A stretch of DNA of 54,610 nt, the filler included, from Diploschistes diacapsis (taxonomy: Eukaryota), in assembly GCA_023645945.1 (NCBI GenBank). It is 4 parts of 4 records of this genome, joined end to end, with 100 filler letters (N's around TTAATTAATTAA, not from the genome) between each part and the next. Parts side by side here need not be neighbours in the genome. Positions count along the whole stretch, not along the records: positions 41,040 to 54,610 come from JALAIB010000646.1; 3 more parts are not named here. One strand, written 5' to 3'. Under the pieces are notes generated by a model, which was not told the DNA's origin, made no database searches, and saw only the letters and a list, made by a program, of their open reading frames with translations. Made by a program: the position numbers and the translations under genes. This document shows, piece after piece, positions 27,980-45,065 of the stretch. Within the stretch, counting starts at the first letter, position 1. Every line of letters starts with the position of its first letter.

Positions 27980-30679
27980 ATGAACGGCCTGAAGTATATT
28001 CACGGCTTCCGAACCGCCGAGCCATCAAAGCCAATCGTTCCCGTGCCCGCTGATAGGCCGCATCAGCCAACCCAGGACCTTGGCGGTGGCATCGCCCCCT
28101 ACCCTGTGCCAGAATCTGAACCCCAGGCCATGTTGCTTAACAACGTCAGTTATTTCAACAAAGATGTAAACTTTGTATGGCCCATGCTGACAGACAGAAA
28201 AGCAAGCGACCATGGCAGGCCAGTCCACTACGAAAGATCCGGTCTCGATGCATCTCCTCATGGAGACTGCGATCGGTGACAGCGAGCACTATGACGTTCT
28301 TTCACAAACTGAGCTGGATTCGCTAAAGCGGGAACTTGTGCGAGTATCAGGTCAATTGAACACCTCGAGACACCAGCTTGTGCTAGACACAAAGGTTCGA
28401 GATGCCGCACGATCCATGGACAGGCTATCCGCAGTTCCAACCAAGGACGTTGCGAAGCCGGGCAGCAGAGGAAAGGGGGGCGATGCAGTGAGGGACACCC
28501 CCGAGATGGCGCAAAGCGTCAAGAGGTGCGAAGAGTTGACTGAAGAGATTACGCACCTGGAGAAAGAGGAATATCGGCTACAGAAGCGGCTGCTCGAACA
28601 TACCGCAGGTGTTCTGCAGCTGACGCACAAAGGCTATCTCAAGAAAGATCCGAGTCCCGAGGATATCAAGAACGGGCAGTTCATTTCCGGCATGAATCCA
28701 GACGGCGAGTTTGGAGGTCTCGGGCAGTATGCGCTCTACGAGCAGGTCCTCGACAACGAGTTGAACGGAGATAAGCCGACAGCAGAGCTTGCCGGACAGC
28801 ACCAGATAATCCTAGACGTAGAGCGCAAAGTCGAAGATCTAAATGCAAAATTACGAGATATGATACTGGAGCTGAAACCACGGAAGCTGGCCTTACCGCT
28901 ACCGCCTCCACAACTGGACGACGATCCAGATCATCTGGCCGAGGTTCTCTTCGAACAGGTGGATTTCCTCGAAAAATGTCTCCGCACGGTACACGATCTA
29001 CAAAACGCAACGGCCAGGGCCGCAGAGTCGGAAGCTGAAAGGGAGGGTCAGTTGATTCTGGGGGTGGAAAAGCGCATGGAAGACCTGAATGTGATATTGC
29101 GAGATATAATACTTGGGATGAAGCCTCGAAAAGATGACTTGCCAAATCCTGCACGCGAGCTCAGAGACGACCCGACGCATGCAGAGGACATACTGCTCGA
29201 GCAACTGGACTTTCTGGAAGCCTGTCTAAAGTCCCTGCAGAGACTAGTCGGCAGGAAACTCGAAGCTGGCGAATTCGACACATCCGAGGACCGTATAGAA
29301 GCCCTGAACAACGTTCTCTTCGATCTCATGGCTCAGAACGACCCCGAACGAGCGTCCAAATACTTTCCCCCTCCCAAATCCGACGGCACCACGATACTCG
29401 ATCAGTTCATCTACCTCCAGCAAGGCCTCAAGGCCGTCGACCGGCGCATGGGCGAGCTCGGCGACTTTGAAGACACCGCTGCGGAAAAACTAGCTAGCTA
29501 CCAAAATCGCGCCGAGCAATACGCCTCCGTCATCGGTGGCCTCTGGGATATATTAACAGCGGAAGACCACGAGGCTGCCCTGCGCTCTGGCCTGCCCCCA
29601 CCACAGGATAATTTTTCGCTGCAAGCCTTCTCGGCAAAAGTCCAAGAGCTCCACGCCACCCACCTCGACCTCCTCGACCAGAAAGCCGTCCTCACGCGCC
29701 AAATTCAGCAACAGCGCGAACTAGGCGCCACGGCCGACAGCACGCGGGACCAGCGTATGGACAGCATGCGCGAGGAGAACACGGCGCTCAAATCGCAACT
29801 ACAGATCACATCCGAAGAAGCCGCAGCGCATCTGGAGAAGCTCAATCTCGCAGCCGCGGAGCTCTCGGCCGCGAAGAACATGCTCTCCATGCGCGACGCC
29901 CAGACCGGGCTCTCGTCGTCGAAAGCGCTGGATGAGGAGAAGGCTGGGAGATTGCTGGCGGAGGAGCAGCTGACGGCCCAGACGGCCCTGGCTGTGCTGG
30001 CCGAGACGTCGGCCAAGGAGCTCGAGTCCGCAATGGTGCGGCTGCGGACGGAGTTGACGATCGCCAAGGCGGAGCTAGACTCGGCGCACGGCACGCGGGC
30101 GCAGCGCGCGGCGGAGGCGGCGGCGGACCCAACGCTGCAAGCGAGGATCCAGACGCTGCAGGACGAGCTGGGCGAGACGATTGCCGACTACGAGGCCATG
30201 ACAAAGGCGACGATCGAGTACGAGAAGGAGAGGGAGGGGCTGGAGGCGACGGTGGACGGGCTGAGGGATAAGGTGGAGAGTTTGGAGGGGGCGTTGGCGG
30301 AGGAGCGGATCGCGGGGATGGGGGTGAGGAGTCCGGGGATGGAAAGTACGAGGTCGACGGGGGTAGGGGGGACGAGCGTGAGTTTGTTGAGGGGCGAGTT
30401 TCGGAAGATGATGAAGGAGACGAAGGAGGCGCACGGGCAAGAGAAGGCGAGGTTGAGGGAGGAGCTTAGGGTGAGTTTTTTCTTGTGTTGCTGCTGGGGT
30501 TTAGGCACTCTCCGCCTTCTTTTTTTCTGTCTGATACTTTCCTTTATTCATTTCTGTGAGCTGGCTTTAAGAGATGTGGTGCTGACTCCAGTCAACAGGG
30601 CGAGCAGAGAAGAAACCGAGAACTAGAGACCAGGCTCAAGGGCCTGGAGAGAGAGCTCGCAGCTGCAAAGCGGAAGTAG
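27980..30679 (+). CDS. Uds1 (up-regulated during septation) domain coiled-coil protein
   Basis: DPVSMHLLMETAIGDSEHYDVLSQTELDSLKRE..KVRDAARSM..RLLEHTAGVLQLTH, then long coiled coil. Intron 1 starts at 28145 (acceptor uncertain). Last intron 30471-30598; TAG at 30677-30679. Confidence 0.82.
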
Positions 30680-38798: not shown

Positions 38799-40103
38799 GG
38801 AGGGAGCGTCGGATACAGCAGTAAGGCTGAGGAAAGGGGGCGAGGAAGATGAGGGAGTAAAAGGTAATGGTTTTGAGAAATGGAGAAAAAGAGAGGAGGA
38901 TGAAGTTAGCCAGTAGTGTATGGATTCCGTATTGGGTATCATTTTTCCCCAGTACTAGAGCTGTATAGTAATGCTTGTCATCCCAGTTATTTCAGTGGAG
39001 CATAGGTAGTTACAAGTTAGTATTTACATTTCCACTTCATAAACATCAAGGGCAATCAAATGAATATAACGACTGCTTACATAGCCCCCAATCAAGTCCC
39101 CATGGCCCCTTCTCATTCCACTGCCCCTTCATCTCTCCTCCTCCCATCAAACCCATGTCCAGACATCCCCCTCAAGCCCTCTCAACCTCCCACGCAAATG
39201 CCACCGCACCTAACCCCCGTCACCCGCGCAGGTCTCTCATACGCGCAGAACCGAGCGGACAAAACGCATCCACCGCCGCCACCGCCGTGGCCGCGCCCAG
39301 CTCGCCGTGATCTTGGCCGTGATCAATCAGCAAACACCACTGTAGACCCTCCATGTCAGTCCCCATGTCCATCTCTCCTGAACCCCCATCTGGTTGCACG
39401 CCTCTCTGTCCCGTTCCCCGCCAAGCCTGTAGCTGCTGCGCGTGCCAGATCACGGCCGCCGCGCCGCGGCAGCACGTGCCCGACGAAGCGGTTGGGAGTG
39501 TACGAGAAATGGCTTTGGCGGGGTCCCGGGTCCCTAGTGCTCCGGGGTTGTGGCAGGGTGTGGTGGGGAAGAGGGGGATGATGAAGATGAAGAAGAAGAG
39601 GAAAAGGAAAAAGGAAGATAAAAGAGGAGAAGAAAAAGGGTAGGGAGAGGGGGGAAAGAAGATGGGAACTAGGAAATAGGAAACGAAGCATTGGAAAACA
39701 TCATGTATCTACCTTCGTAGATGTATTTCAACTGGGCGAGACTTCGACCCCCGGTCCCCCGGGTTTTGGCCTACTGTTCGTTATCTGCCGACGGCGAGGT
39801 ATCCGGAGAGCAAACCCTCCTGAGGAAAGAGGAAAGTAACGGGAGCTTTTTCCCGATAACTCAGCTCTCCGGCCCCCTTCCTTCCCCTTCCCATCACCCA
39901 GCCCATTACGCGGTGCGGAATTATCCCCCGCCCGCGCAACCTATCTCTTCGCCACAAAAAGCGCCCAATACATTTCCTATTTATCATATATTTTTATATT
40001 GAAAAGCGGAAACTTCGCCACACAACTCACAAACTCACACCCCGTCCCTTTTTCCCCAAGCGCCACCTCACCTCACTACCTCAAAATTTTCTCTCCCGCC
40101 GAA

Positions 40104-42751: not shown

Positions 42752-45065
42752 TTAAAAGAACTTGCCCAACTTGTGGACAGCGTCTTGGGGTTCTGGGTAT
42801 CTGTCATCCTGTATGCCGTTTGTTTCTTCATTCGAGTGATTGAATTGGGGAGGACGGTCGAAAGCATCGAAATGCCGACCTCGGACCTTTGCAACACACC
42901 ACCGAAAGCCAACACGCAACGCCAGGGCAGCAAGAGCCCAAACCAGTCCACCTACTGGCGCAGCAACGAATGCTCCTGGATGTGGGTAAGCGAGCTGGAT
43001 CGGAGTCAGAGTTGCAGAGACGAACCAAATACGCTCCAGTCGTCCGCGTACAACCCGTTTTCGAGGAGTAGGAGATTTGCTCCATCTTGTGCATCACCAT
43101 AGTAAACCGACCCGAAGATGAATACCGTCAGGAGACCGCCCAGGCCACCGACTACGACTTCAAATCCCCTCCACCAATAGAATCTATCGTTGAGGCCAAT
43201 GACGAGGACTGGAATCGAACTTGCGCTGAGGAGGTCCGATATTAGGTAGATGTTGATTACCGATGGTGATTTCAGGGCAACCACGATGACGGGTATCATG
43301 ATCAGAAGAACTGCGAGGCGGATTAACCAAAGATTCAACTTGTTGCGGAATAAGTCGTTGCTGCCGGTGGACACCATTGCCGACACGAAGCTGTCAAATG
43401 CTGAAGTGCTCAGTGCTATCGTCATAACTAGGACGATCCCAAGGACCCAGCTCGGCAATTGCCCCAGAAGAAGGAAGAAGACAATACTGCCCTCCGAGGG
43501 ATCTCCTGACCACGCCCCTGTCCAAGCGGCCAGGAGCCCGGTGATTCCAACCAAAAGAAGGATGATGGTCACGACAACAGTTGCGATACCAACACCGATC
43601 CGTAAATCTCGGTCACTTTTGGAAGCAAACGTACGCAACCAGAAACCAGAGACGAAGAAGTCGTTCGTGAGGATCGCTACTGGCAGGATATATATCAGCT
43701 GCCAACCAAGCAGGCTTGGACCCAACAAGCCAGAAGATTGAACGAGGCTGGGATCGATCCGTGTTTCAACGCCAATAGTGATGACCGCCAGGACAATTAG
43801 TCCAACCACCATGGCCCCCTGGATATTGTCGGTGATGAAGGAGATACGAAACCCTCCGAGAGCTTAATTGGTTAACCATGTTCGCAACAACCTCAAACGC
43901 AAGCTTACACGTATAAATTGCGGTGATTGCAGCCTCAATAACGAGGGCTGGGAGCCCATCCAACCCGGTAAGGGCGTAGATGATTTGCTGGAGCGCGGAA
44001 AGCTCGGCAACCATGAAAAGAAACAGAGTCATCAGCCTGTAGATTGGTTAGATAAGCTGAGGGAAAGTTTGCAATACTATCTCGCACGTTAGGATGCTAA
44101 GATAAAGAGCTGTGACCACGCCATATCTTTGCCTGGCCCATTCCGTCAAGACAAATCCCTCCGGACACTTTCTGCGGATGATCGGTCCAAGATAGGCAAA
44201 TAACAGCAGAGGAAGCGAAGAAGATAGTGTGTACACGATCAGTCCCTGTAGTCCCGCGATGATTGAGATCTGAGGGTAGGCGAAAAGGACGCTGGAACCT
44301 AGGGCTGTTGTCAAAATGAAGGGAACTTGGTCAGCGTCTGGTTCACCAAGAACGAGCTCACGGGTTTTTGAAGCGGCAGCACATTCCTCACGCAAGCATT
44401 ATCTTGATCGAGTAATCACGGTACAGTCTCAGCCTTTGCGATGAGGAGCAGCGGGTTGCAGGCTGCAGTTCCAGGAGCACCTCATCGCTCCAGCGCCCGT
44501 AGCGATGCCGCGCAGAGCAAGATACAGTGAGCACCACCTTGGAGAACGCCACGGGTCTCGCAAGGCTGCTTCCTGGCACTTGCGTCTGCTATGGATGCAA
44601 ATACGAACCTGCTTGTAGATCTCCTCCGAGATAGCCATCGTTGCCAGGCCATGTCGACTGCTTTCGCCGCTGGAATTACTGCCGCTTCTAAAAAACGACT
44701 GCGCCAGCGTCATGGCACTCACATGAAGCAATAAAGTTAAGCGCTAGAGGGAACGCTAGAGGGCAGTATCAGCAACTGTGTCTAAATATCATCTTTAAAT
44801 TAGGCTGCGCTCATGACTGCAATGGCAAAGACCTTGTAAAAGGAGTCGTCAATTCTAACCGGATTGCGTTCGGTTGCTCGCTAGGAACTCGGAGCGAGAC
44901 TGTCTTCGGAATTGCCATGAGATATAAAGGCCGAGTATGCTGCAGGTTTCAAGCATGATTAGAGCGACGCTTGATATAGCATGGCCTGTTCTGGTTGACT
45001 TACAGAAAGGCACCATATGTGATATAGATGATGGCATTTGATGCCTGGAACGATAGCTGTCCCAT
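42752..45065 (-). CDS. Sodium:solute symporter-family (urea-transporter-like) permease, NCU01977-type; putative thiamine or thiamine-precursor transporter
   Basis: Seven exons (45065-45004, 44939-44860, 44755-44723, 44304-44088, 44036-43909, 43862-43026, 42975-42752) splice in frame. Product: MGQLSFQASNAIIYITYGAFL..FLASNRTQ..PLALNFIAS..GPIIRRKCPEGFVLTEW..GGFRISFITDNIQG..GKFF*. Confidence 0.9.
44379..44509 (-). ncRNA. TPP (thiamine pyrophosphate) riboswitch aptamer in intron 3
   Basis: Minus strand: TACGG GCGCT..GCGATGAGG..CCTCATCGC..GG CTGAGA CTGTA CCGTG ATTA CTC GATC AAG ATAATG CTT GCGT GAG GAAT. It has the CUGAGA, GAUC and UAAU/GCG motifs and pairable P2-P5. Confidence 0.9.
44659..44695 (-). 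promoter_or_regulatory. Long-range anti-aptamer (alpha) element near the 5' splice site
   Basis: TTTTTTAGAAGCGGCAGTAATTCC..AAAGCA is complementary to TGCTT..GGAATGTGCTGCCGCTTCAAAAA (44398-44365), which overlaps the aptamer's 3' side. Confidence 0.8.

Follow-up and report, generated by a model that had tools for sequence, protein, structure and literature searches.

The closest described counterpart of the element reported here is the thiamine pyrophosphate (TPP) riboswitch of Neurospora crassa NCU01977, in which a segment named alpha (RGCGGYRRY in consensus form) reaches across ~530 nucleotides (nt) to base-pair with the 3′ shoulder of aptamer helix P1 (Li and Breaker 2013, PMC3597705). When thiamine is low, that pairing promotes use of the first 5′ splice site, and compensatory mutants restore control. 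In 16 of 18 other fungal examples, according to the same paper, the helix comprises 11 or more continuous pairs, alpha is located <60 nt from the 5′ splice site S1, and its partner, alpha′, is <60 nt from the 3′ splice site. Mukherjee et al. 2018 (PMC5882874) class the NCU01977 design as Type II and associate it with genes annotated "urea transporter", and Donovan et al. 2018 (PMC5997356) report that Dur31, the orthologue of NCU01977, transports thiamine in Candida. We analyzed a 54.6-kb stretch of DNA from Diploschistes diacapsis (assembly GCA_023645945.1), referred to below as the window, and describe an element in intron 3 of a transporter gene on its minus strand. This element is very probably a functional eukaryotic TPP riboswitch of the NCU01977, or long-distance, type that works as in the published model.

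To place the locus among its relatives, we scanned metagenome contigs with an alignment of homologues, which gave 80 related loci. Both exon borders of the intron are present in 45 of them, and the 28 introns that remained after identical or near-identical copies were dropped were aligned with that of the window (alignment A2, 29 sequences). Each of the structural features that define the NCU01977 type was found at the locus: the host gene and intron, alpha, alpha′, the distances between these elements and the splice sites, and an alternative splice site whose use leads to a stop. All elements of the design are also conserved in the orthologues, so that homology and folding both support the riboswitch interpretation of the initial annotation, which had also correctly placed the element in a class already published for N. 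crassa. The features are as follows.

42752-45065, minus strand: host gene of the sodium:solute symporter family, 7 exons, 526 amino acids (aa) (tblastn of homologues and spliced model)
45065-45004, 44939-44860, 44755-44723, 44304-44088, 44036-43909, 43862-43026 and 42975-42752, minus strand: exons of the host gene (spliced model)
44723-44755, minus strand: exon 3, a 33-nt micro-exon encoding ..AFPLALNFIAS, immediately 5′ of the riboswitch intron
44305-44722, minus strand: intron 3, 418 nt, phase 1, between NFIAS and LGSG (position kept in the 45 related loci)
44717-44722, minus strand: productive 5′ splice site GTGAGT, counterpart of N. crassa S1 (GGTGAGT conserved in A2)
44664-44696, minus strand: alpha element, core GAAGCGGCAGUA at 44688-44677 (folding and consensus match)
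44603-44611, minus strand: internal alternative 5′ splice site CAG|GTTCGT, GT at 44608-44607 (conserved; counterpart of N. crassa S3)
44373-44511, minus strand: TPP aptamer from P1 to P1, with a long P3 and no P3a (RF00059 match and minimum free energy (MFE) fold)
44511-44506/44378-44373 and 44504-44502/44382-44380, minus strand: P1, 6 + 3 base pairs (bp) (MFE fold)
44501-44497/44421-44417, minus strand: P2 (MFE fold)
44494-44492/44434-44432, minus strand: P3, with a 9-bp extension GCGAUGAGG/CCUCAUCGC (MFE fold)
44432-44427, minus strand: J3/2, CUGAGA (sequence)
44412-44409/44390-44387, minus strand: P4, CUCG/UGAG (MFE fold)
44406-44403/44396-44393, minus strand: P5, CAAG/CUUG, with loop AUAAUG (MFE fold)
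44364-44395, minus strand: alpha′ (anti-alpha), spanning the entire P1 3′ shoulder (44382-44373) and 9 nt beyond (folding)
44330-44334, minus strand: likely branch site CTGAC, 26 nt 5′ of the 3′ splice site (GCTGAC/ACTAAC conserved there in A2)
44305-44307, minus strand: 3′ splice site CAG of intron 3 (intron sequence and spliced model)

The resemblance to N. crassa extends through the whole arrangement. The gene is orthologous, and the intron occupies the same position, interrupting the same codon (NFIAS|xLGSG) after a 33-nt micro-exon of the same size and content. The aptamer likewise has a long P3 and lacks P3a, and its 3′ half is almost identical by eye to that of Supplementary Fig. S8 of PMC3597705. 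The alpha core fits RGCGGYRRY, alpha′ coincides with the P1 3′ shoulder, and the continuous helix reaches the published minimum of 11 bp (12 here). An internal AG|GTTCGT corresponds to S3, and the non-productive products carry stops. The differences are of degree. The intron is 418 nt long, compared with ~684 nt in N. crassa and typical lengths given as 550-650 nt (PMC3597705) or 650-900 nt (PMC5882874). Alpha lies 34 nt from the donor rather than ~70 nt, and its core reads GAAGCGGCAG rather than AGAGCGGUAG. The predicted helix is longer than the N. crassa P1-shoulder pairing, being flanked by a U/A tract and, at its opposite end, by AUUCC/GGAAU, and reaches P4. No clear equivalents of N. crassa S2 and S4 were found in the window intron.

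Two other described systems are also close. DUR31 of Candida parapsilosis and C. albicans belongs to the same orthologous transporter family (clade V Dur31); its coding region is interrupted by an intron that carries a TPP riboswitch, and thiamine represses productive splicing. It differs as a budding-yeast gene with a single native intron (PMC5997356). NMT1 (THI5) and THI4 share the aptamer class, alternative 5′ splice sites and the OFF-switch logic (Cheah et al. 2007, as relayed in PMC3597705 and PMC5997356). Those genes have the aptamer in 5′-untranslated-region introns, P4-P5 masks a proximal 5′ splice site, and upstream open reading frames are produced. By contrast, the window has a coding intron, P1-shoulder pairing over ~300 nt, and premature stops.

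The host gene was reconstructed as a spliced model with an open 526-aa frame that is 74.6% identical over its full length to a 532-aa homologue (P0001). The 285-aa exon detected 326 homologues at E ≤ 0.001, the majority of them named "urea transporter" with PF00474. Pfam searches with single exons assigned no family, and the family was taken from the PF00474 already attached to these homologues. By sequence similarity, the gene is an orthologue of N. crassa NCU01977 and Candida DUR31, a thiamine transporter type usually annotated as a urea transporter. The proposal that the substrate is thiamine rather than urea agrees with the Candida Dur31 experiments (PMC5997356). The six introns measure, in order, 64, 104, 418, 51, 46 and 50 nt. 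The boundaries previously given for intron 3, from GTGAGT at 44722 to CAG at 44305, are exact in the spliced model; of the 47-104 nt range stated for the other introns, the upper bound holds and the lower must be corrected to 46 nt. Among the 28 environmental relatives the corresponding intron is 364-742 nt long, which puts the window's 418 nt on the short side without making it unusual.

The aptamer was recovered both by covariance-model search and by folding. RF00059 matched 44510-44367 on the minus strand with 40.5 bits (E = 1.7e-6 in a local search), and it was the sole match at E ≤ 0.05 when all 4227 Rfam families were searched against the whole window (E = 1.6e-4). Folded in isolation (44520-44360), the region adopts as its MFE structure the canonical three-way junction of P1, a P2-P3 arm and a P4-P5 arm. 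The full aptamer, initially placed at 44509-44379, was found at 44511-44373, with every helix named earlier present in the MFE fold. The conserved motifs that contact TPP are present in the window, with CUGAGA at 44432-44427 and ACUCGAUCAAGAUAAUGCUUGCGUGAGGA at 44413-44385 (P4-P5 ..GAUC..UAAU..GCG..), and their columns are invariant in 29/29 aligned sequences; contact identities follow the summary in PMC5882874. More generally, the window shares every aptamer column that is invariant across A2.

The second component is the long-range pairing. The sequence AGCGGCAGU (44686-44678) within alpha fits the published RGCGGYRRY, and the helix begins 34 nt past the donor G. The core is flanked by a U tract on its 5′ side and by AUUCC (44676-44672) and a second AGCGGC copy on its 3′ side. 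In the predicted ligand-free ensemble, 44688-44677 pairs with 44381-44370 in 12 continuous bp (p 0.76-1.0, one G-U). Of the 10 positions in the P1 3′ strand, this helix occupies 9 and leaves 44382 bulged out. It is extended by a predicted AUUCC/GGAAU flank helix of 5 bp (44676-44672 with 44387-44383, p 0.94-0.98), by a predicted U/A tract helix (44696-44691 with 44369-44364, p 0.47-0.73) and by a predicted weak helix to the P5 3′ strand (44670-44664 with 44395-44390, p 0.33-0.53). In this fold alpha′ thus also spans J4/1 and parts of the P4 and P5 3′ strands. The complementarity noted earlier between 44695-44659 and 44398-44365 reappears as a predicted pairing of 44696-44664 with 44395-44364. 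On the acceptor side, 62 nt separate the end of the alpha′ core (44370) from the CAG at 44307-44305, and 56 nt separate the end of the extended helix (44364) from the same CAG. Since the published distance is commonly <60 nt, the value is borderline here and within range.

The two predicted folds exclude each other. The MFE structure of the whole intron (-152.8 kcal/mol) includes the alpha-alpha′ pairing, and the probability of P1 in it is ~0. Forcing the 26 aptamer pairs on the intron costs 8.0 kcal/mol, and when alpha is barred from pairing, 26/26 aptamer pairs return in the predicted fold. In these models, a ligand bound with nanomolar affinity could offset a gap of 8 kcal/mol, the affinity of TPP aptamers being taken here as general background. 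The initial annotation held that the pairing invades P1, P4 and P5. The replacement of P1 stands in the predicted fold, and the invasion of P4 and P5 is predicted and well supported in the closest relatives only.

Two further sequences adjoin the paired segments. The second AGCGGC copy (44665-44671, minus strand), 8 nt past the alpha core (CCAGCGGCGAAAGCA), could let alpha′ pair in a different register; the predicted fold has it weakly paired to the 3′ strands of P4/P5 instead. Directly 3′ of alpha′ lies GTGAGC (44356-44361, minus strand), a possible donor of a 57-nt mini-intron with the same branch site and acceptor, for which no conservation was seen in the 29-sequence alignment.

Among the 80 related loci, 61 have the 3′ core of the aptamer ~0.5 kb upstream of the same exon, in the same orientation. 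Four further loci (L003, L049, L053 and L056) score with RF00059, the contig of L045 starts inside the aptamer, 7 of the 80 loci are too short upstream for the aptamer to be judged, and another 4 are the spliced transcripts described below. The same aptamer is thus present in at least 66 of the 80 environmental loci. Its helices are paired in 92% of the cells of A2, compared with 20-41% when partners are slid. The 12-bp alpha-alpha′ core is paired in 89.7% of cells with MAFFT (24-60% slid), and compensatory changes were found in two pairs, in 11 cells. Because MAFFT had shifted part of the alpha column, we also anchored alpha and alpha′ on their cores. In this arrangement, positions -1 to +8 are paired in 26-29 of the 29 sequences, position -2 is A-U in 12 and G-C in 5, and position -3 is G-C in 18, A-U in 3 and G-U in 6. 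Duplexes between cognate alpha and alpha′ average -38.2 kcal/mol and non-cognate ones -35.1 kcal/mol, and 0 of 5000 permutations reached the observed sum.

The extension of the pairing towards P4 and P5 does not share this breadth. Scored as the 40 nt 3′ of the alpha core and compared with shuffles, it reaches z ≤ -2 in only 1 of the 29 sequences, and we rejected it as a general feature. In the window itself, z = -1.3 and the segment ranks 4th of 14 among windows of its own intron. Among the five nearest relatives, it ranks first in four (L004, L009, L016 and L019). On these models the extension is a clade-specific strengthening of the anti-aptamer that is predicted but not proven.

The third component is the internal 5′ splice site. 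The alignment contains a mid-intron block, CAGGTTCGTAT, within which AGGTTCGT is invariant or at least 90% conserved, and GGTTCGT occurs in 28 of the 29 sequences. Because N. crassa S3 (nt 495-496, Supplementary Fig. S8, PMC3597705) reads ATAG|GTTCGT, we regard the conserved block as its equivalent. Splicing from this site in the window keeps 114 nt of the intron and leads to a stop after codon 69, as does retention of the intron; every product of the host gene other than that from S1 has an in-frame stop. Use of the site is visible in transcript-like contigs of relatives (L055:282-608, L070:509-783, L073:205-385 and L074:402-677). These contigs lack the downstream introns and have the S1 donor unspliced, and their canonical acceptor is joined to the internal site in three cases and, in L074, to a GT 4 nt upstream. 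All four reach stops right after NFIAS (NFIAS-GE-stop or similar). These contigs represent naturally occurring non-productive isoforms in relatives, comparable to N. crassa product III. In the host gene, the donor of intron 6 (43020-43025, minus strand) is also GTTCGT, the same hexamer; as it is constitutive, such a weak-looking donor is usable in this organism.

The 9-nt block AGGUUCGUA is kept nearly letter for letter across diverse ascomycetes (28 of 29 sequences and N. crassa), which exceeds what an alternative 5′ splice site needs. A conserved aptamer partner for the GTTCGT site was sought and dropped, as the duplexes (-6 to -17 kcal/mol) had differing targets in each sequence. The block could be a weak decoy donor tuned against S1 or the binding site of an RNA or protein partner. 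We raise, tentatively and with considerable doubt, the idea that it is a second recognition element of the expression platform and that, in the window's clade, the anti-aptamer helix has also grown from the P1 shoulder into J4/1 and P4. If this is true, an anti-aptamer in J4/1 and P4 would mean that the ligand must also compete for the pyrophosphate-sensor arm. A literature search for GUUCGU or GTTCGT with "TPP riboswitch" returned nothing fungal; Moldovan et al. 2018 may already describe the site.

The published model would apply to the window as follows. At low TPP, alpha, just 3′ of the productive donor, would pair with alpha′, that is, the P1 3′ shoulder and its flanks. This would dissolve P1 and loop out ~280 nt that include the internal 5′ splice site, and the donor and acceptor would be juxtaposed, leading to excision of the entire intron 3 and production of the 526-aa transporter. 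At high TPP, the ligand-bound aptamer would keep alpha′ in P1 and the advantage of the distal donor would be gone. Splicing would then move to CAG|GTTCGT, or the intron would be retained, and the stop after codon 69 would result in less transporter. The anatomy of the element, its conservation, the covariation in orthologues, the two exclusive predicted folds and the use of the internal site in environmental relatives come directly from our data. TPP binding, thiamine-dependent splice choice and thiamine transport are predicted by analogy with the work in N. crassa and Candida.

A number of our results weigh against this reading, and we considered them together with the other explanations that they might favour. 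At gathering thresholds, Rfam gave no match anywhere in the window. The minus-strand RF00059 search suggested at the outset returned a significant E-value, and its 40.5 bits stay below the gathering score of 54.3, which is a curated annotation cut-off and not a biological feature. The score is low because P3 contains a 57-nt insertion in the alignment to the model and the optional P3a hairpin is deleted. RF00059 also matched 14/16 and 4/10 of the related loci tested (35.5-49.4 bits), and all 18 of these orthologue matches lie under the gathering score; in 2 of the 16 loci that have the core motif there was no match at E ≤ 0.01. Scoring below the threshold is characteristic of this orthologous class. 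In L040 (3034-3561) and at the same coordinates in L041 and L042, a 489-nt intron occupies the riboswitch position. These introns contain no aptamer, CTGAGA, alpha core or GTTCGT, and L040 and L041 have no RF00059 match; their sequences suggest that the riboswitch decayed or was lost while the long intron stayed in place, which would mean that the device can be lost. Both the low score and the losses could be taken as signs that the element of the window is a decaying relic, its TPP binding or splicing control already gone in this lineage. We consider this very unlikely, since the window keeps all aptamer columns that are invariant in the 29 sequences, together with the alpha core, the S3 site and the branch site, its aptamer MFE structure is canonical, and the 8 kcal/mol between the folds suits a ligand-driven switch.

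The aptamer could instead be functional while control is mainly local, as in NMT1 and THI4, or consists of plain intron retention, with alpha-alpha′ contributing little. Under local control, the P4-P5 strands would mask a nearby alternative 5′ splice site without TPP. Li and Breaker (PMC3597705) describe a residual thiamine response after deletion of alpha and a possible pairing of P4-P5 with the S4 site, and the window has AAG|GTGGTG ~25 nt upstream of P1. However, this candidate proximal site is not conserved in A2, the conserved GTTCGT site has no consistent aptamer partner, alpha-alpha′ is kept with compensatory changes, and alpha-alpha′ gives most of the regulation in N. crassa (PMC3597705). 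We judge predominantly local control to be unlikely, less so than a relic. The failure of the P4/P5 extension in most sequences, noted above, also counts against the reading, and a productive S1-spliced transcript was found at 0 of the 80 related loci. For the aptamer helices, A2 gave only 1 pair changed on both sides, no better than shuffles; these helices hardly vary and therefore provide conservation rather than covariation. The permutation and shuffle controls ignore the relatedness of the sequences. A last explanation is that the long-range complementarity arose by chance and that the long intron does no more than house the aptamer. We scored alpha′ against 13,640 windows of 56 nt on both strands of the window. 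The alpha site reached -46.0 kcal/mol (mean -22.2, standard deviation 5.8), and two unrelated plus-strand sites, at 30081-30160 (-48.8 kcal/mol) and 39441-39504 (-45.2 kcal/mol), match alpha′ equally well. We take these two as chance matches. Because they reach similar energies, duplex energy alone is not proof, and position and conservation decide. On the transcribed strand no site scores better than alpha; it sits 34 nt past the donor and fits the published consensus, and 26-29 of the 29 orthologous introns keep the pairing at that location, compensatory changes included. The comparative sequence data already contradict a chance match, which we hold to be extremely improbable, and we retain a functional long-distance TPP riboswitch as the explanation of the locus.

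The neighbouring long frames at 4639-41867 resemble ordinary fungal genes, none of them thiamine-related; they include Vac7, an RRM protein, U3-associated protein 6, a PGAP2IP-like protein and Uds1, as well as a xanthine/uracil permease family protein and a sulphur-transport family protein. Sequencing run X1 yielded six short contigs of a relative that is 90-99% similar; they contain no joints and leave 44077-44643 uncovered.

For this family, both the mechanism and thiamine as the substrate have been published before, and no new mechanism is added here. What is mildly new amounts to small refinements of the published model: the near-invariance of the S3-type site and its natural use in environmental relatives, the predicted clade-specific extension of the helix, the apparent occasional loss of the device, and the failure of the Rfam gathering threshold for this class. 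For annotation, the host gene is better called a DUR31/NCU01977-type thiamine transporter than a urea transporter, and the regulatory RNA that is its intron 3 escapes default Rfam thresholds, as do 18/18 orthologue matches. Automated gene models tend to mis-splice the riboswitch intron. A Sordaria sp. homologue (P0106) has ~28 extra residues (59-87) exactly between NFIAS and LGSG, which are probably mis-spliced riboswitch-intron sequence. The legend of Supplementary Fig. S8 (PMC3597705) mentions a comparable phantom exon in the old N. crassa annotation.

The top homologues of the host protein (76-79% identity) are proteins from lichen-forming fungi, and by this similarity the long-distance TPP riboswitch is extended to an apparently lichen-forming fungus. 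A literature search for "TPP riboswitch" with lichen returned no paper about lichen fungi, judged by title. In lichen-forming fungi, the exchange of vitamins with the photobiont is of interest.

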